Assembly: GCA_009692615.1 (NCBI GenBank) | Contig: SHYW01000004.1 | Coordinates: 8,273 to 72,272, forward strand | Direction: 5' to 3' | Source of the DNA: Deltaproteobacteria bacterium | GTDB taxonomy: Bacteria > Desulfobacterota > Binatia > UBA9968 | Length of the DNA: 64,000 bases | Part shown: piece by piece, positions 4,158 to 12,107 of the stretch | Layout of the letters: each line of letters starts with the position of its first letter | How positions within the stretch are numbered: the first letter of the stretch is position 1 | The notes under the pieces: model-generated | Database searches by the model: none | What the model saw: only the letters and a program-made list of their open reading frames with translations | What the model was told of the DNA's origin: nothing | Program-made: the position numbers and the translations under genes

Positions 4158-4200
4158 CGTTGAGCCTCGAGGTTTGAGGGCCGAGCAGCTGGGAATCGTA

Positions 4201-5070
4201 ATGAGAAACTTTGAATTAGTCGAACCGCGATCGCTAAACGAAGCCTGCGCGCTCCTCGCCAACGAGAGCGATGCCAAAGCAGTCGCCGGCGGCACGGCGC
4301 TCTTGACGATCATCAAGCAAGGCCTGCTTCTGCCGAAGTCATTGGTCAACTTGAAGAAGATCGGCGATGGATCGGCGATCGCGTTCGATCCAATCCACGG
4401 CATGCGCATCGGCGCTTTGGCGACGATCAACGAGATCGAAACCTGCGAAATTGTAAAGCAGCACTATCCTATTCTCGCCCAAGCCTGTCACGTCGTCGCC
4501 AACATTCGCATTCGTAACATGGCGACCATCGGCGGCAACCTCGCCCATGGCGATTATCAATCCGATCCGCCGACCGTGCTCGCTGCTTTGAATGCGCGCG
4601 TTGAAATCATGAGCGCGACAGGGATTCGTGAATTACCGCTCGGCGAATTCCAACGCGGCAGCTACGAAACGGCCCTCGAAGCCGGCGAGTTGATCTCCGC
4701 GGTGATCATGCCACCGCTGCCAAGCGGAATGCTGGGCCACTATGTAAAATTCACGACCGGCTCTTCGGAAGAGCGCCCCTGCGCCGGTGTCGCGGCGTTG
4801 GCGCGGTTTGAAAACGGGTTGTGCAAGGAACTGCGCCTCGCTGTCGGTGCCGTGTCGGCGAAGCCGTCGCGCATTGGCGCGGAAGCCCTCGCCAACGGCA
4901 AAGCGCTGACACCTGATTTGATCGCCACCATCGCCGCCGAGGCGGCGCGCGCCGTCGACCCGATCGACGATGTGCGCGGACCGGCCGATTACAAGCGCCA
5001 TCTGGTCGGCGTGTTAACCCGCCGCGCGATTCAAGCGCTCGCCAATGGCAAGACGGAGGCGACAACATGA
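4201..5070 (+). CDS. molybdopterin dehydrogenase FAD-binding (medium) subunit, xanthine dehydrogenase/CoxM family
   Basis: FELVEPRSLNEACALL..AVAGGTALL.. matches the FAD-binding molybdopterin dehydrogenase domain. Its stop overlaps the next start (ATGA). Confidence 0.8.
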   Translation: MRNFELVEPRSLNEACALLANESDAKAVAGGTALLTIIKQGLLLPKSLVNLKKIGDGSAIAFDPIHGMRIGALATINEIETCEIVKQHYPILAQACHVVANIRIRNMATIGGNLAHGDYQSDPPTVLAALNARVEIMSATGIRELPLGEFQRGSYETALEAGELISAVIMPPLPSGMLGHYVKFTTGSSEERPCAGVAALARFENGLCKELRLAVGAVSAKPSRIGAEALANGKALTPDLIATIAAEAARAVDPIDDVRGPADYKRHLVGVLTRRAIQALANGKTEATT

Positions 5071-7343
5071 CCCTAGTCGGGACCAATGTCGAAATGGTCG
5101 GCGGCCGCGCCAAGGTTAGCGGCGCGGTGAGCTATGTCGCCGATATGGAATTCCCAGGCCAGCTTTACGCCAAGGCGCTGCGCAGCCCCTATCCGCACGC
5201 GAAATTGCTGCGCGTCACCGCCAGTAAAGCGGCGGCGCTGCCAGGAGTCCGCGCAGTGGTGACACGCGACGATTTAGCGGGGCTTAATCCTTACTTCGGC
5301 ACCGGCGTCGAAGATCAGCCGGTGGTCGTCATCGACAAAGTTCGCTGCGTCGGCGACATCGTCGCCGCGGTGGCCGCGGACTCAAAAGAAATCGCCGAAG
5401 AAGCGATCACGCTGATCGAAGCCGACTATGAAGAGCTGCCCGCCGCCACCGACATTCTCGCAGCCGCCAAGCCGGGCGCGCCGCTGGTGCAGGAGCAGCA
5501 TGTCGACAAAAACGCCGGCGGCAACATTCACGGCGTCTATCGCGCCGCCAGCGGTGACATCGAGCAGGGTTTCAAAGAATCCGATGAGATCATCGAAAAC
5601 ATTTATCACATTCCGCCCGTGCAGCATGGCCATATCGAACCTCACGTCGTGACGGCGCTGTGGGAGCCCAGCGGCAAGCTGATCGTGCATACGCCGAGCC
5701 AGACGCCGTCGCCGCTGCAAGAGCAGATCGCCAAGGTTTTTAAAATGCCCTTGAACCGCGTGCGCGTCATCGTGCCCTTCATCGGCGGTGGCTACGGCGG
5801 CAAGAACCACGCGCGCATCGAGCCGGTGGTGGCGTTGCTGGCGCGCAAAGCGCGCCGCCCGGTGCAGTGGATTCTCAGTCGCGAGGAAGTTTTTCTCACC
5901 GGCCGGCGCTTCGGCGCGGTGGTGAAAATAAAAACCGGCTTCAAGCGCGACGGCCGGCTATGGGCGCGCAAGGTCGAAGCCTGGTACGACATGGGCGCCT
6001 ACGCGCTGTCGGGTCCGGCGAACACGAAGAACGCGGCCATCATCGCGGGCGGCCCCTACAACATTCCCCATCGCGACTACACCACTTACGCGGTTTACAC
6101 CAACCTGCCGCCCGCCGGTCCCTACCGCGGCGTCGGCGCGTCCCATGTTTGCTGGGCCTATGAATCGGACCTCGACGACATCGCCCGGCGCTGCAACCTC
6201 GATCCGTTGGCAGTACGGCTGAAAAATCTAATTCAAGAGAACGACCGCTTCATCACCGGTGAAGCGATGATTTCCGTCGGGGTTTCGCAATGCGTCAAGC
6301 AGGTCGCGGAATCCATCGGCTGGCAAACGGGAGCGGAGCAGTCCTCGCGAAGCGATACGATTGTCCGAGGCAAAGGCCTCGCCGTCGCGATCAAGAGCAC
6401 TTCGACACCGAGCACCTCTGCCGCCAGCGTGCGGCTTAACGCCGACGGCTCGGCGGTCTTGCTCACCAGCACCTCCGACATGGGCCAGGGCGCGCAGACC
6501 GCGTTGGCACAGATCGTCGCCGATGAATTGGCGCTACCCTTCGAGCGCGTCACCGTGACTTTCCCCGATAGCGATATTACGCCCTACGACAAATCCACCA
6601 GCTCCAGCCGAGCGACCTTTCACATGGGCAAAGCGGCGCAGCTCGCCGTCGGCCAGATTCGCGATCAATTGTTTCAAGCGGGAGCCAAAGCCCTCGAAGC
6701 CCGGGTCGAAGACTTGGAGTTGCGCGATAGCCGATTGCAAGTAAAAGGCGTACCGGAAAGAAGTCTCACCTACCCGCAGCTCTTCAAAGCGATCTACGGA
6801 GAGGCCAGCGGCAGCCTATTTGGCAGCCATACATTGCGCACCGAAGGCGGCATCGATGCCCAGGGGCATGGCAAAGGTTCGTCGTTTTGGTTTTACTCCG
6901 CCGCCAGCGCCGAAGTCGAAGTAGACACCGAGACCGGCAAAGTCCGCGTCCTCCAAGTCGCCAGCGCCGTCGATGTCGGCAAAGCGGTGCATCCGATTCA
7001 ATGCGGCCTGCAAAACGAAGGCTCGGCGCTGGCCGGATTGGGCTCGGCGTTATTTGAAGAGATGCGCTACGACAACGGCCAGCCGATCAACAGCAGTTTT
7101 CTCGATTATCTCTTGCCGTCGATGCTCGATCATCCCGGTGAATTTAACTCGCTGCTCGTGGAAACGCCCCATCCCGACGGTCCCTACGGCGCCAAGGGCA
7201 TGGGCGAAGCGGCGCTACCACCGATGGCGCCGGCAATCGGTAACGCCATCGCGAACGCATTGAACGGCGTACGCGTGCGCGATCTGCCGGTGAAGCCAGA
7301 CAAGATCGTCGCCGCTTTGAGCGCGAGTAAAAAGAGAAGCTGA
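5067..7343 (+). CDS. xanthine dehydrogenase family molybdopterin-binding large subunit
   Basis: 758 aa with aldehyde oxidase/XDH a/b hammerhead and MoCo-binding domains. The active-site loop reads PYRGVGA (form II/generic), not the AYxCSFR of true CO dehydrogenase. Confidence 0.85.
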   Translation: MTLVGTNVEMVGGRAKVSGAVSYVADMEFPGQLYAKALRSPYPHAKLLRVTASKAAALPGVRAVVTRDDLAGLNPYFGTGVEDQPVVVIDKVRCVGDIVAAVAADSKEIAEEAITLIEADYEELPAATDILAAAKPGAPLVQEQHVDKNAGGNIHGVYRAASGDIEQGFKESDEIIENIYHIPPVQHGHIEPHVVTALWEPSGKLIVHTPSQTPSPLQEQIAKVFKMPLNRVRVIVPFIGGGYGGKNHARIEPVVALLARKARRPVQWILSREEVFLTGRRFGAVVKIKTGFKRDGRLWARKVEAWYDMGAYALSGPANTKNAAIIAGGPYNIPHRDYTTYAVYTNLPPAGPYRGVGASHVCWAYESDLDDIARRCNLDPLAVRLKNLIQENDRFITGEAMISVGVSQCVKQVAESIGWQTGAEQSSRSDTIVRGKGLAVAIKSTSTPSTSAASVRLNADGSAVLLTSTSDMGQGAQTALAQIVADELALPFERVTVTFPDSDITPYDKSTSSSRATFHMGKAAQLAVGQIRDQLFQAGAKALEARVEDLELRDSRLQVKGVPERSLTYPQLFKAIYGEASGSLFGSHTLRTEGGIDAQGHGKGSSFWFYSAASAEVEVDTETGKVRVLQVASAVDVGKAVHPIQCGLQNEGSALAGLGSALFEEMRYDNGQPINSSFLDYLLPSMLDHPGEFNSLLVETPHPDGPYGAKGMGEAALPPMAPAIGNAIANALNGVRVRDLPVKPDKIVAALSASKKRS

Positions 7344-7344
7344 A

Positions 7345-7806
7345 ATGAAACTCTCTATCGCCACGACTATCAATGGCCACAGCCAAGAGTTTCAGGTCAA
7401 CGCAAACCAAACGCTCTTGGAGCTGCTGCGCGACAAACTGAAACTCAAAGGCGCCGTCGAAGGTTGCAGCGTCGGCGTCTGCGGTTCATGCACGGTGTTG
7501 ATCGACGGCAAACCGGTCAGCTCGTGTCTTACCCTGGCGAGCAATATCGAAGACAAACAGGTCATTACTATCGAAGGCCTGTCGCAAAACGGTGAACTCG
7601 ATCCCGTGCAGCAAGCGTTCCTGAAACACCAAGCCTTTCAATGCGGCTTCTGCACCACCGGCATGATCATGGCGGTGAAAGGTTTACTGAACTCCAATGC
7701 CCATCCGAATGAAGAACAAGCGCGAGATTATCTGTCGGGCAACCTTTGCCGCTGCGGCACTTACAAAGAAGTGTTGGCGGCGGTCAAAGAGTTGGCAAAT
7801 AGTTGA
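7345..7806 (+). CDS. (2Fe-2S)-binding small subunit of the molybdenum hydroxylase
   Basis: CSVGVCGSCTV and CGFCTTGMIM..CRCGTY cysteine motifs. Confidence 0.85.
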   Translation: MKLSIATTINGHSQEFQVNANQTLLELLRDKLKLKGAVEGCSVGVCGSCTVLIDGKPVSSCLTLASNIEDKQVITIEGLSQNGELDPVQQAFLKHQAFQCGFCTTGMIMAVKGLLNSNAHPNEEQARDYLSGNLCRCGTYKEVLAAVKELANS

Positions 7807-7890
7807 TAGAAACGGTCACTGGCAGGTTTGCATCTCGCTTGCCAACTTAACTCACCGAGTTTAAACTGCCAAAAGTTCGAGGAAGCTATT

Positions 7891-8142
7891 ATGAAAGCGC
7901 GCATCATTCAAATCGGCAAAGCAAAAGGCGTTCGACTTCCAAATAAATTGGTCAAAGTGGCCCATCTCAGGGAAGAGGTCGAACTCGCAGCGGCACCTGG
8001 GCATATCACTATTCACAGCGCCGCTCGGCCGCGCGCCGGATGGTCGGCCTCAGCCAAGCGCATGCGCGAGCGCGGCGAGGATCGGCTAGTCGCGCCGGTA
8101 CCAGCGACAAAATTCGACGAGGAAGAATGGCGGTGGCGCTAG
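7891..8142 (+). CDS. mazE: AbrB/MazE/SpoVT-type antitoxin
   Basis: MKARIIQIGKAKGVRLPNKLV swapped-hairpin N-terminus. Overlaps the downstream toxin by 16 nt. Confidence 0.6.
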   Translation: MKARIIQIGKAKGVRLPNKLVKVAHLREEVELAAAPGHITIHSAARPRAGWSASAKRMRERGEDRLVAPVPATKFDEEEWRWR

Positions 8143-8468
8143 CTCAAACACCCGCACGCGGCGAAGTCTATTTAGTTCAGCTCGATCCAACGCGTGGAGT
8201 AGAGATCCGGAAAACCAGACCCTGCATCGTCATCTCACCCAATGAACTAAATCAACACCTGCGCACAGTAATTGTCGCGCCTTTGACCACGCAGAGTCAC
8301 GCCTATCCGTGGCGCCCACGCTGCCGATTTCAGGGCAAAGCCGGTTATGTTGTCATCGATCAGCTTCGTACCGTCGACGTCCAACGCTTGACCAAACGAC
8401 TGGGACAAATTCCGCAAAACACGCTTACTACGATACTGAACGTACTCCACGAGATGTTTGCATTTTAA
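8127..8468 (+). CDS. mazF: MazF/PemK family mRNA interferase toxin
   Basis: GEVYLVQLDPTRGVEIRKTRPCIVISPNELN..VIVAPLTT.. is a canonical PemK/MazF core. Confidence 0.7.
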   Translation: MAVALAQTPARGEVYLVQLDPTRGVEIRKTRPCIVISPNELNQHLRTVIVAPLTTQSHAYPWRPRCRFQGKAGYVVIDQLRTVDVQRLTKRLGQIPQNTLTTILNVLHEMFAF

Positions 8469-8539
8469 GTCAGGCCCAAACCTGTCGTAACTTGGCCGTC
8501 GCAAAATTTTCTACAATTCAGTGAATCGCGAATAACTCC

Positions 8540-9343
8540 ATGCCCACCGACACCTGCTACTGGAAACACGAAATCCCCGCCGACCAAGCTTTTCCCTGCT
8601 ACGACGGCAAAAGCACAGTCTGTAGCCATTGCTGCGTCGAGCAGTGTCCCAAGGAAACGCCGCAATGGTTCGCCGCCTGCGCCCGCGCCGGCCATCCGAC
8701 CTGGCCTAGCGTCGATCAAGGCCAGCGCGTGTCGCGCAAACTGGTCGTGCTCGAATCTTACTGGGACAACCGTCTGTTTCAGACCATGTCGGTCAAAGGC
8801 TTCTTCGAATCCATGGGGCCGTTGCACGATCCGCCGTTGCAACTAGCGCACCGCTTCGTCGAATCCCAACGCGGCCTAGCACACTACACGCGATCGCCCG
8901 AAGGCCTTCTCTGGCGCGATCCCGCCGCCGCCGATGCGCCGATTTTCTACTTGGCATTTCACGGCGCGCCGAGCGAAGTCAAATCGGTCCTCGAATCCAT
9001 CGGCGCCCAAGAGCTGTGCGATGCCTTCCAAAACTTCGGCGTCAAACCCAACCTGGTTTACTTCGCCGCGTGCAGCGTGCTCAAAGGCCGCGCCGGCCGA
9101 CAGTTCGCCAAGAAATTTCTCGAAGCCTCCCGCTGCCGCGCGCTGCTCGGCTACACCACCAACGTCAACTGGATGCTCAGCCTGCTGACCGATATGCTTT
9201 TCCTACACCGCTTCTATCGCGACGACGATCCATGGAAAAACTTGCGCAAGATTTACCGCTCGGTGCTGAACGACTTCAAACCCGCCGAAGAAATTGGTTG
9301 GACATTAATCGAGAATCCGCGCAGCTTTAAGAAGCGCCGATAA
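8540..9343 (+). CDS. hypothetical protein: Cys-rich N-terminus plus candidate caspase/CHAT-like His-Cys dyad
   Basis: N-terminal CxxxxxxxxxxxCxxxxxxCxHCCxxxC cluster. Later IFYLAFHGAP and NLVYFAACSVLKG lie about 45 aa apart, in the pattern of C14/CHAT catalytic His and Cys. Confidence 0.35.
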   Translation: MPTDTCYWKHEIPADQAFPCYDGKSTVCSHCCVEQCPKETPQWFAACARAGHPTWPSVDQGQRVSRKLVVLESYWDNRLFQTMSVKGFFESMGPLHDPPLQLAHRFVESQRGLAHYTRSPEGLLWRDPAAADAPIFYLAFHGAPSEVKSVLESIGAQELCDAFQNFGVKPNLVYFAACSVLKGRAGRQFAKKFLEASRCRALLGYTTNVNWMLSLLTDMLFLHRFYRDDDPWKNLRKIYRSVLNDFKPAEEIGWTLIENPRSFKKRR

Positions 9344-9394: not shown

Positions 9395-9437
9395 CTGTAG
9401 GGGCAGACCTGCGTGTCTGCCCTTCTCCATTCGAAGG
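9395..9437. repeat. repeat family B copy (ctgtaggggcagacctgcgtgtctgccc..)
   Basis: Same element at 59855-59923, with related copies at 15525-15547 and 57465-57492. Confidence 0.5.
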
Positions 9438-9448
9438 ACTGAATCATC

Positions 9449-10552
9449 ATGCTGAGAGCTGGAATCGTCGGTCTGCCCAACGTCGGCAAGTCGACACTGT
9501 TTAACGCCATCACGCGCACGCGCAAAGCCGAGGCGGCCAATTATCCCTTTTGCACCATCGATCCCAACGTCGGCATGGTCACCGTGCCGGACGCGCGGCT
9601 CTATGTCTTGCAGCAGATGGTCAAAACCAACGTGGTCATCCCGGCGGTGATCGAGTTCGTTGACATCGCTGGCCTGGTCAAAGGCGCCAGCCAAGGCGAA
9701 GGGCTCGGCAATAAATTTCTCACCCATATCCGCGAAGTCGACGCCATCGTCCAAGTTGTGCGCTGCTTCGAAGACGCCGACGTGCACCATGTCTCCGGCA
9801 ACATCGATCCGGTGCGCGACATCGAAGTCATCAACACCGAACTCATGCTCGCCGATCTCGAAACCGTGAAGAAGCGGCGCGAGCGCATCGCCAAGGAGAT
9901 CAAGCGCGGCGACAAAGCCGCCGCCGCCGAGGACGCCCTGCTGGTGAAAATCGAAACCGCCCTCGACGCTGGCAAGCCAGCTCTCACTGTCGAACTGACG
10001 CCGGAAGAACACGCCATGTCCGCGCAGTTTTTCCTGCTCTCCGACAAGCGCACGATCTTCGCCTGCAACGTCAAAGAGTCCGACTTGGCCACCGCCGATC
10101 AGAACAGCTACGTGCAAAAAGTGCGCGACTACGTGAAAACCCATCTCGCTTGCGAAGCGGTGGTGATCAGCGCGCAGATCGAGAGCGACCTCGTCGATCT
10201 CGAACCCGCCGACGCTGAAGCCTTTCTCAAAGAACTCGGCGTACAAGAAAGCGGCATCGGCGCGCTCATCCGCGCAACTTATCATCTGCTCGGGTTGCGG
10301 ACTTATCTCACCGCCGGCGAAAAAGAAGTGCGTGCCTGGACCATTCACGCCGGCGACACCGCCCCCAAAGCCGCCGGCGTCATCCACTCCGACTTCGAAC
10401 GCGGCTTCATCAAAGCCGAAACCGTTTCTTACGAGGACTTAGTTCAATGCGGCTCCGTCGCCGCGGCCCGTACGAAGGGCTTATATCGCATGGAAGGGAA
10501 AGAATACGTCGTGCAGGATGGGGATGTGATGTTGTTTAAGTTCAATGTTTAG
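9449..10552 (+). CDS. ychF: redox-regulated ribosome-binding ATPase YchF (Obg family GTPase)
   Basis: GIVGLPNVGKSTLFNA P-loop, DIAGLV, a C-terminal TGS domain, and the conserved tail GKEYVVQDGDVMLFKFNV. Confidence 0.9.
   Translation: MLRAGIVGLPNVGKSTLFNAITRTRKAEAANYPFCTIDPNVGMVTVPDARLYVLQQMVKTNVVIPAVIEFVDIAGLVKGASQGEGLGNKFLTHIREVDAIVQVVRCFEDADVHHVSGNIDPVRDIEVINTELMLADLETVKKRRERIAKEIKRGDKAAAAEDALLVKIETALDAGKPALTVELTPEEHAMSAQFFLLSDKRTIFACNVKESDLATADQNSYVQKVRDYVKTHLACEAVVISAQIESDLVDLEPADAEAFLKELGVQESGIGALIRATYHLLGLRTYLTAGEKEVRAWTIHAGDTAPKAAGVIHSDFERGFIKAETVSYEDLVQCGSVAAARTKGLYRMEGKEYVVQDGDVMLFKFNV
10452..10552 (+). repeat. direct repeat R1 (3' 100 nt of ychF), copy 1
   Basis: About 88% identical to 11120-11219, and the last 60 nt are nearly identical. 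Confidence 0.65.
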
Positions 10553-10586
10553 TGAACAAGCTGAAAATGCGCAGCCGAAAGTAAAT

Positions 10587-10657: not shown

Positions 10658-11074
10658 ATGAAGATTGCGCCTCAGAGTTTCTATGCAGCTATCGCTGCTG
10701 GCTGCGCCACGGTTTTGCCCTTGGTCGGGGTGCAATTAGTCGTTGATTATTTCGATTCACCCGCTAAAGGTCCGGATCGGGCAACAATGGCAGTGATCTT
10801 CCTAACGCCCATTATCATCTTGGGATTTGCAGCCTACTTTGTTGGAGTCAGGATATTACTTTCATTGCTTCGGCTCGATTCGCTTCGTACGGCATTGATC
10901 GTAAGCGCGCTCACTGTCGGCGTTCTAATAAGCTGGATGATTTTCAACGACCCGTCATCAAGCCCGAATACGTTCTGGGGATTTGTCGGACCTTCTTGCA
11001 TAGTTCTTACATCCCTCGTCGCGGGAACTTTTGTGTACGAGTGGGCGCGTCAACGTATTCATCCGAACTGGTGA
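10658..11074 (+). CDS. hypothetical integral membrane protein (3-4 TM helices)
   Basis: 138 aa and hydrophobic. Lies between R2 and the second ychF-tail copy. Confidence 0.4.
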   Translation: MKIAPQSFYAAIAAGCATVLPLVGVQLVVDYFDSPAKGPDRATMAVIFLTPIIILGFAAYFVGVRILLSLLRLDSLRTALIVSALTVGVLISWMIFNDPSSSPNTFWGFVGPSCIVLTSLVAGTFVYEWARQRIHPNW

Positions 11075-11119
11075 AATAGACCACAATACACATGACCGCT
11101 CACGTAGCGATGAATGCGA

Positions 11120-11219
11120 CTCCGTCACCGCCGCGCGCACCAAGGGCTTGTGCCGCATGGAAGGGAAAGAATATGTCGTGCAGGATGGGGATGTGATGTT
11201 GTTTAAGTTCAATGGGTAG
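11120..11219 (+). repeat. direct repeat R1 copy 2 (orphan duplicate of ychF 3' end)
   Basis: Encodes ..AARTKGLCRMEGKEYVVQDGDVMLFKFNG stop, versus the ychF tail ..AARTKGLYRMEGKEYVVQDGDVMLFKFNV. Confidence 0.65.
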
Positions 11220-11249
11220 TGCGCGCCTCGGTCGCGAACGGAAACGAAG

Positions 11250-11477
11250 ATGAAACAACGAAAACTCAAACTATTGGAAACCATCGCACTGCTTCAAGAC
11301 ATACCATCCCGCAAGCTGAAACGCGGCGAAGTTGGCACGGTAGAAGAAATCCTTGCGCCCAATTTTTACGAAGTTGAATTCTGTGATGACGAAGGGCAAA
11401 CCTACGCCGAACTGGCGTTACGCGGCATACAGATCATCCCGTTACATAACCAGAGCCCATTAAGAATTGTCGCGTGA
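11250..11477 (+). CDS. DUF4926-like small protein
   Basis: 75 aa. LLQDIPSRKLKRGEVGTVEEILAPNFYEVEFCDDEGQTYAELAL follows the DUF4926 pattern. Confidence 0.5.
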   Translation: MKQRKLKLLETIALLQDIPSRKLKRGEVGTVEEILAPNFYEVEFCDDEGQTYAELALRGIQIIPLHNQSPLRIVA

Positions 11478-11497
11478 GCAAAGAGGCCCACGACAGC
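11441..11497 (+). repeat. direct repeat R2 copy 2
   Basis: Pairs with 10587-10646. Confidence 0.55.
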
Positions 11498-11574
11498 TCC
11501 AATCTATAGAATTGGTATTATGCCCCCGGACCTTTGTCTCTTTCATTTTCCAAAACTGTGGCTACAATAGGTCC

Positions 11575-11907
11575 GTGGCTCGAGCACTCTCCCCGGATGA
11601 TGTTCTCTTTGAAGTTTTGAGTCCGCTTGGATTTCGTGTACGCGTCACACGCGGCTACTGGGAAGTCATCGTTTCGATCAAGCATCCGGTCATGGCGGGA
11701 CATGAACAGGATGTCAAAGAAACGCTTGAAACTCCCAGCGAGATTCGATTGAGCAAGAACGATTCGACAGTTCACCTGTTTTACCGGCAGAAAGAGATCG
11801 GACGATGGGTATGTGCTGTGGCCAAGCGTCTCGATGGTGAAGGCTTTCTGATTACAGCTTACCCAACCGACGCGATCAAAGAAGGAGAACAGATATGGCC
11901 CAAGTGA
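11575..11907 (+). CDS. DUF4258-like protein (putative toxin partner of DUF2283)
   Basis: C-terminal ..KEIGRWVCAVAKRLDGEGFLITAYPTD resembles the DUF4258 VVITAY motif. GTG start chosen; the ORF-track start is TTG at 11467. Confidence 0.35.
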   Translation: MARALSPDDVLFEVLSPLGFRVRVTRGYWEVIVSIKHPVMAGHEQDVKETLETPSEIRLSKNDSTVHLFYRQKEIGRWVCAVAKRLDGEGFLITAYPTDAIKEGEQIWPK

Positions 11908-12107
11908 AAGTTTTTTACGATGAAACCGGCAATACGCTCACCGTCTGGTTTGGCGATCCTGAGAGCGAGTACATCAGCGAGGAAACCGGTGAGGAAGTCA
12001 TCCTCATGAAGGACAAGGCTGGTCATGTCATCGGTTTTGAAAAGCTCAATTTCACGGTCGCCAAACCCAAGCATCTACAAGTGGCGTTCGAAACGGTAGG
12101 CGGCTAA
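11895..12107 (+). CDS. DUF2283 domain protein
   Basis: VKVFYDETGNTLTVWFGDPESEY..EEVILMKDKAGHVIGFEKL is a typical DUF2283 signature. Confidence 0.55.
   Translation: MAQVKVFYDETGNTLTVWFGDPESEYISEETGEEVILMKDKAGHVIGFEKLNFTVAKPKHLQVAFETVGG

Follow-up and report, generated by a model that had tools for sequence, protein, structure and literature searches.

The fold of clan CD peptidases consists of a sheet of strand order 2-1-3-4-5-6, five flanking helices and a small beta section between beta3 and alpha3, with the His and Cys of the catalytic dyad placed at the ends of beta3 and beta4 (PMC4357240). Small proteins of this type are exemplified by Tce2, which belongs to the H3 type VI secretion system (H3-T6SS) of Pseudomonas aeruginosa, comprises 190 amino acids (aa) and loses its toxicity to yeast in the C115S mutant (PMC13323088). 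Here we describe a gene of the family DUF6642 in a stretch of 64,000 nucleotides (hereafter the window; contig SHYW01000004.1 of assembly GCA_009692615.1, positions 8,273 to 72,272) from a deltaproteobacterium of the Binatia. Its product is identical to MSP37138.1 (locus tag EXR70_01430), from a deltaproteobacterial metagenome-assembled genome, and is best explained as a cytosolic two-module DUF6642 protein with the following features:

8540..9343, + strand: complete open reading frame (ORF) of the DUF6642 gene, ATG at 8540 and TAA at 9341-9343, 267 aa plus stop
8540..8707, + strand: N-terminal Cys-rich module, aa 1-56, presumed to hold two zinc ions through eight ligands
8738..9313, + strand: predicted caspase/haemoglobinase-fold domain (clan CD, CHAT-like), aa 67-258
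8753..8755, + strand: codon (gaa) of Glu72, an invariant acidic residue at the modelled end of beta1, loop L1
8960..8965, + strand: codons (cac ggc) of His141-Gly142, the predicted catalytic His at the end of beta3
9071..9073, + strand: codon (tgc) of Cys178, the predicted nucleophile at the end of beta4

In the mechanism that we favour, residues ~67-258 would form a minimal clan CD domain, to which CHAT domains are structurally closest, with His141 and Cys178 as catalytic dyad. The combination of a clan CD fold with such a dyad makes a site-specific cysteine endopeptidase, which would cut an intracellular substrate, the most likely function. The module of seven Cys and one His at residues 1-56 (Cys7His1), which is confined to a subfamily and recurs in a Ser/Thr kinase protein, would serve in targeting, interaction or sensing, and the gene is inherited vertically in this lineage, between a cluster of xanthine-dehydrogenase-like (XDH-like) genes and ychF. 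We assign a probability of roughly 0.6 to this reading, that is, to site-specific proteolysis by His141/Cys178 together with a targeting or sensing role of the Cys-rich module; both the peptidase activity and the role of the module are inferred.

DUF6642 is a conserved, uncharacterised bacterial family that has already been catalogued and is newly read here as a member of clan CD. The preliminary description of this stretch, made from the sequence, had presented the protein as an orphan of no recognised family, which proved to be wrong. The 267-aa protein reaches the Pfam model DUF6642 (PF20347) at 27.3 bits (E = 3.4e-6), a borderline score given the gathering threshold of 27.0, and the same model is matched by 63 of 70 relatives, with a best E of 8.4e-35. 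Homologues of the protein number 519 at E <= 1e-3, and a profile search with the family recovered 789 clusters at 50% identity. Every homologue record that was checked bears the source name "hypothetical protein", and a plasmid-borne relative is annotated as "DUF6642 family protein". No match for the 267-aa protein was obtained in NCBIfam or in a direct sequence search of the PDB, and none to any defence model of PADLOC-DB at E <= 1. A long form of ~260 aa with the Cys-rich N-terminus is found in Binatia, "delta proteobacteria", Anaerolineae, Gemmataceae, Thermodesulfobacteriota and Bacteroidota; a short form of ~200 aa, which begins at the catalytic domain, is found mainly in Burkholderiales and Nitrosomonadales. 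The majority of DUF6642 members are devoid of the Cys-rich module.

A caspase/CHAT-like fold had been suspected from the motifs alone and is now supported by structure prediction. The AlphaFold2 model of the full protein, for which an alignment of 25 sequences was the input, has a mean predicted local distance difference test (pLDDT) score of 82, with values of ~90 over residues 67-258 and low confidence at residues 30-60. The modelled domain runs from beta1 (67-73) through helices to beta2 (101-106), through further helices to beta3 (135-140), and continues with a small hairpin (146-155), alpha3, beta4 (172-175), alpha4, beta5 (201-205), alpha5 and beta6 (254-258). This topology matches the definition of clan CD in the order of its elements, in the small beta section and in the position of the dyad at the ends of beta3 and beta4. 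In a Foldseek search with the model, the SAVED-CHAT structure 8tl0 ranked first (E = 1.4e-7), followed by caspases and Craspase; the glycosylphosphatidylinositol (GPI) transamidase and the OaAEP1 ligase are likewise among the structural or sequence matches.

A search of PDB sequences with the DUF6642 family profile, which is independent of the structure model, leads to the same clan. It returned 55 weak matches, and all 55 are clan CD proteins, with ancestral caspase-3/6/7 as the best (E = 0.0012) and legumains (E = 0.014) and the GPI transamidase also among them. In the profile alignment, "YlafHG" of the family falls on the caspase motif "LLSHG", and "iyFgsC" falls on "FFIQAC". Weak Pfam cross-matches of individual DUF6642 members point to DUF4347, Peptidase_C13, CHAT and Peptidase_C25. 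The CHAT model itself (PF12770) was not matched by our protein at E <= 1 and by only two of the 70 relatives (best E = 0.055), and the caspase C14 model (PF00656) gave no match for the protein or its relatives. In its presumed mode of action the protein most resembles a cysteine peptidase of the CHAT or caspase type, but it falls outside both sequence models, and DUF6642 is a separate family inside the clan.

The motifs in which the dyad resides are IFYLAFHGAP (residues 135-144) and NLVYFAACSVLKG (residues 171-183). Both had been singled out in the preliminary description as the His-Gly and Cys motifs of caspase-like proteases and both are indeed present; the spacing of 45 aa given there was in error, as the motifs start 36 residues apart and His141 and Cys178 are separated by 37. 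In the AlphaFold2 model H141-G142 follow upon beta3 and C178 upon beta4, and the active-site sequence around the Cys reads F-A-A-C-S-V, that around the His F-H-G. His141, Gly142 and Cys178 are invariant among 25 close relatives. In a set of 70 relatives that are 21-48% identical and whose aligned columns average 20% identity, Glu72, His141, Gly142 and Cys178 are the sole invariant columns, and a separate alignment of 80 sequences retains the His-Gly pair in 77 of 79, Cys178 in 77 of 78 and Glu72 in 76 of 77 aligned residues. Invariance of the His, Gly and Cys amid an identity of ~20% indicates selection on catalysis. Fold, topology, conservation and the profile alignment, in which the two motifs fall on the caspase SHG and QAC, together support the placement of His141 and Cys178 as a dyad, from which a peptidase activity is inferred.

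The fourth invariant residue, Glu72, may bear on specificity. In clan CD the determinants of S1 specificity lie on L1/alpha1, L4 and L5, and the region corresponding to Glu72 holds such determinants, Arg87 in caspase-7 and an Asp in MALT1 and gingipain (PMC4357240). Glu72 is probably either a residue lining the S1 pocket, for a basic residue, or one that orients His141. If it lines the S1 pocket, a basic P1 residue is predicted.

The N-terminal module was first noticed for its density of Cys residues. The protein has Cys at positions 6, 20, 28, 31, 32, 36, 47, 160, 178 and 199, so that the seven N-terminal Cys reported previously are present, though six and not seven of them fall within the first 45 aa and the seventh is at position 47. 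Among 81 long-form sequences C6, H10, C20, D22, V27, C28, C31, C32, C36, C47, T54 and W55 are invariant; when copies from other architectures are added, the seven Cys and H10 remain invariant and H52 does not. The ligand spacing is C-x3-H-x9-C-x7-C-x2-CC-x3-C-x10-C. Seven Cys and H10 make eight ligands, sufficient for two tetrahedral zinc sites, and the module probably binds two zinc ions. A dedicated AlphaFold2 model gives a pLDDT of 81-87 over residues 1-50, and no Pfam or NCBIfam model matches the module.

The module is a rare mobile domain. The 693-aa Ser/Thr kinase P0225 (Pkinase and TPR) carries a tandem pair of modules at its C-terminus, at about residues 541-665, another tandem pair is found in the 202-aa protein P0195, and the module also occurs as short stand-alone ORFs. 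These other architectures come from the representative search only. Used by itself as a profile, the module retrieved only eight short proteins, a number to be read with the limits that the word index sets on short queries.

The DUF6642 gene is under purifying selection, with ratios of nonsynonymous to synonymous substitution rates (dN/dS) of 0.07-0.14 against six relatives, and its G+C content at third codon positions (GC3), 0.74, is like that of its housekeeping neighbours. ychF is shared with four species-level relatives (DUF6642 proteins 81-86% identical) and the XDH-like cluster with six, and the gene order of the window is kept; this synteny extends, depending on the gene, over 4-7 related genomes. 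The XDH-like (xanthine-dehydrogenase/CO-dehydrogenase-family) cluster lies upstream at 4174-7806, comprises FAD_binding_5, MoCoBD and Fer2 genes and is likewise found in the six close relatives. Another XDH-like cluster is located near the 60%-identical DUF6642 gene of locus L002 (879-4619), in a different gene order and with 31-43% protein identity, which may reflect chance or a weak functional link. A functional link of DUF6642 to such clusters was considered and rejected as unproven, as they occur at 8 of 87 loci, nearly all of one clade.

The wider neighbourhoods were analysed with a GC3-weighted gene caller, six-frame ORF clustering being dominated by shadow ORFs in high-GC genomes. The gene caller misses small genes, such as mazF of the window, so that small toxin-antitoxin (TA) genes may be under-counted; this gap was covered by tblastn with MazE, MazF, PemK and ribbon-helix-helix (RHH) queries. 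The 134 immediate flanking genes from more than 80 loci belong to 97 Pfam families, among which ILVD_EDD (9), MFS (7) and MarR (7) are the commonest, a frequency that is due to synteny within Burkholderiales. No recurrent neighbour beyond such clade-level synteny was found among the 97 families. Nine contexts with Pfam labels display very different neighbourhoods: L001 has a Mrr_N-GmrSD gene directly upstream and a transposase, L002 the XDH-like cluster with an M50 peptidase, L004 ILVD_EDD and MarR, and L088 a fumarase. The DUF6642 gene is thus solo, without a conserved partner. Metabolic surroundings are met in several places. In two loci with the long form, the gene lies on the same strand as methyltransferase genes and at short distances from them: at L091 (4188-6824) it is flanked by B12-binding and S-methyl_trans genes of a corrinoid methyltransferase operon, and at L087 (3325-4770) by MTTB. 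Meth_synt_2 is a neighbour in four Burkholderiales loci.

Several points weigh against the favoured reading. Transamidases and ligases are built on clan CD scaffolds as well, and some of these scaffolds are inactive. The assignment to the fold depends on a predicted structure, the protein remains below the thresholds of the Pfam CHAT and Peptidase_C14 models, and the model of the N-terminal module is of moderate confidence and without a significant structural match. Literature searches on DUF6642 and PF20347 yielded nothing. The neighbourhoods being mostly metabolic, the protein may instead be a non-proteolytic thiol enzyme.

The main rival to the endopeptidase is such an enzyme, with Cys/His chemistry and the same scaffold but a non-proteolytic reaction. 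The chemistry would then serve a transamidase, a peptide ligase (as in GPI8 or the plant asparaginyl ligases), or an amidase or thioester-forming enzyme whose substrate is a small molecule or a modified protein. The GPI transamidase and OaAEP1 among the structural and sequence matches are consistent with this view, as are the XDH-like cluster, ILVD_EDD, Meth_synt_2 and the MTTB/B12-binding/S-methyltransferase genes in the neighbourhoods. However, no metabolic neighbour is kept across clades, CHAT domains and separase, to which the structure comes closest, act as endopeptidases, and the minimal domain has no obvious additional module for binding a small molecule. We therefore consider this alternative unlikely, although it deserves to be taken seriously.

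We also have to consider that the protein may act alone in conflict or stress-induced death, in the form of a latent protease with a Cys-rich module that would respond to a signal such as redox state, a metal or a phage protein, and with no dedicated partner. The CHAT proteases of CRISPR (clustered regularly interspaced short palindromic repeats) systems and of systems of the CBASS type (cyclic-oligonucleotide-based antiphage signalling) are the closest structural relatives, the N-terminal module is common to a signalling kinase, and relatives are occasionally located in defence islands. One such island is evident at L089 (1-10828, the context of P0081, with a low GC content of 33%), where the DUF6642 gene is surrounded by DUF4007, an MmeI-type methyltransferase/restriction enzyme, a helix-turn-helix (HTH) gene, REase-ARP/PDDEXK_13 and two GmrSD genes. 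With the Mrr_N-GmrSD gene of L001, GmrSD thus stands beside two distant members of the family. Defence-island location is nevertheless occasional and not characteristic: only a handful of the flanking genes, at most about 6%, match any PADLOC model. The collections of mobile elements likewise argue against a dedicated conflict effector, with one DUF6642 relative among 72,556 plasmid records, none in the phage collection and no viral relative in a scan of IMG/VR with the closer alignment A1. The stable synteny beside the housekeeping gene ychF, the native composition, the strong purifying selection and the prevalence of members without the Cys-rich module point in the same direction, and we regard a stand-alone conflict effector as quite improbable.

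The preliminary description had also pointed to the adjacent toxin-antitoxin genes, which lie directly upstream, and had suggested that they mark a conflict system. The genes concerned are:

7891..8468, + strand: mazE-like gene and mazF, a lineage-specific insertion in a variable slot, outside the feature and given for context
7891-8142, + strand: mazE-like ORF, 83 aa, with a 16-nt overlap with mazF, labelled from its position and AbrB-like N-terminus alone
8127-8468, + strand: mazF (PemK_toxin, E = 1.6e-28; weak matches to MazF models of NCBIfam), directly upstream of the DUF6642 gene

No family model matches the mazE-like ORF. On the conflict-system reading, the caspase-like protein would be an effector, or a regulated part, of a toxin-antitoxin or abortive-infection module with mazEF. 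It is true that mazE, mazF and the DUF6642 gene are adjacent on one strand in the window, that L088 has an RHH antitoxin and a PemK toxin 1.8 kb upstream, and that relatives are found in defence islands, at L089 between the MmeI-type restriction-modification gene and the REase/GmrSD genes and at L001 beside Mrr_N-GmrSD. But none of the 91 other DUF6642 loci has an adjacent mazEF, a PemK toxin occurs within 8 kb in just one of them (L088, where the fumarase gene lies between), and no homologue of the window's MazE or MazF was detected by tblastn at 86 other loci of the family. Toxin-antitoxin families are absent from the recurrent neighbours, and the protein itself has no PADLOC match.

Related genomes differ in what fills the slot that separates the 2Fe-2S gene from the DUF6642 gene (7807-8539 in the window). 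L009 has no gene there (88 bp), L010 and L012 have a Lactamase_B-like gene, and L039 has a PNPOx-like ORF together with an unannotated, acetyltransferase-like ORF (the relatives' slots lie at about 5100-8000). Six close relatives lack mazEF at the corresponding place, and the slot is occupied by mazEF in this window only. The two genes also differ in composition: GC3 is 0.60 in mazE and 0.54 in mazF, compared to 0.74 in the DUF6642 gene and values of 0.72-0.75 in ychF and in the two larger genes of the XDH-like cluster. The foreign GC3, the variation of the slot and the dN/dS values together indicate that the DUF6642 gene is native, vertically inherited and constrained, and that mazEF was inserted later. 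mazEF is an unrelated insertion and not a partner; the idea of a joint module is already largely refuted by comparative genomics, and we give it hardly any credence. That the protein is a caspase-fold scaffold without catalytic activity, a pseudoprotease comparable to c-FLIP or the N-terminal domain of Raptor, is just as implausible, as His141, Gly142 and Cys178 are invariant family-wide at ~20% identity, a pattern which indicates selection on catalysis.

Some further features lie close to the gene. The spacer between the DUF6642 gene and ychF contains a 10-bp GC-rich hairpin, GGGGCAGACC...GGUCUGCCCU, at 9399-9424, with a weak T-tract; a terminator scan found no canonical terminator downstream of the gene, and the folding z-score of the spacer is not significant. 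The last 109 nt of ychF (10446-10554) are repeated with 89% identity at 11113-11221, ~670 bp downstream. The repeats flank an insertion with an ORF (10658-11074) for a hydrophobic, membrane-protein-like product of 138 aa without a Pfam match, which suggests that an element entered at the 3' end of ychF and either carried in or preserved a duplicate of that end. Downstream of this duplication, at 11250-12107, small genes of low GC3 (0.51-0.63) are clustered and have the appearance of a small accessory, TA-like islet:

11250-11474: DUF4926 gene, E = 1.5e-19
11467-11907: ORF of 146 aa, no family
11895-12104: DUF2283 gene, E = 5.5e-10

The novelty of these results is modest: a catalogued family of unknown function is newly read as a minimal variant of clan CD, and a small, new, probably metal-binding module is added to it. 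If the prediction holds, the family, with ~800 clusters at 50% identity in bacteria of soil and freshwater, among them Binatia, Desulfobacterota, Burkholderiales, Anaerolineae and Bacteroidota, gains a testable enzymatic function as a clan CD cysteine peptidase with a His141/Cys178 dyad, and its members would be among the smallest solo caspase-fold proteins in the bacterial repertoire. The Cys7His module, common to a kinase, is defined here. A bolder view, which we put forward as rather doubtful, is that the DUF6642 proteins make up a hitherto unrecognised class of cytosolic proteases with a minimal caspase fold and no partner, in a subfamily of which a two-metal Cys7His module, also present in signalling proteins of the Ser/Thr kinase type, would couple a redox, metal or protein signal to proteolysis. 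If true, this would amount to a simple switch by which bacteria regulate proteolysis or cell death, and it would set the proteins apart from the CHAT proteases linked to CRISPR or CBASS. The locus also calls for caution, as the adjacency of a toxin-antitoxin pair in one genome is not evidence for a conflict system; the synteny here places mazEF in a variable insertion slot.

Compared with known systems, DUF6642 has the caspase fold in common with the CHAT domains (PF12770), such as those of the SAVED-CHAT protein of type III CRISPR (PDB 8tl0), of TPR-CHAT/Csx29 in Craspase and of DdvA. The likeness extends to the His-Gly after beta3 and the (S/A)-A-C after beta4. The motif after beta5 (GYTxxVxW...D...F..RFY) also appears to resemble the C-terminal CHAT motif. 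By contrast, the DUF6642 domain is much smaller (~190-200 aa), lacks SAVED, TPR or any known sensor fusion as well as a conserved partner gene, and is similar to CHAT in structure alone, without reaching the PF12770 model. Caspases, metacaspases and paracaspases (MEROPS C14) and legumain/GPI8 (C13) likewise agree with DUF6642 in fold and placement of the dyad, and three of 70 relatives have weak Pfam matches to C13. Unlike the caspases, our protein has AACSV and not QACxG at the active site and an invariant Glu at the L1 position where the Asp-specific caspases have Arg, and its sequence shows no sign of an intersubunit linker, a p20/p10 processing site or a prodomain.

For the N-terminal module, the two-zinc domains RING, LIM, FYVE and MYND provide a parallel in size (~50 aa) and in their eight Cys/His ligands; to our knowledge, its ligand spacing fits none of them. 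A further parallel to the catalytic domain is found in Tce1 and Tce2 of the family DUF4347 (PDB 9qpe; PMC13323088), which are compact, solo, clan-CD-like domains with a His/Cys dyad, like DUF6642, and to which six of 70 DUF6642 relatives show weak Pfam cross-matches. The Tce proteins differ in that they are secreted as Hcp cargo and encoded with T6SS genes, none of which was seen beside DUF6642 genes in the examined neighbourhoods, in belonging to another Pfam family and in lacking the Cys-rich N-terminal module. Nevertheless, Tce1 and Tce2 are the nearest precedent for a solo domain so small.
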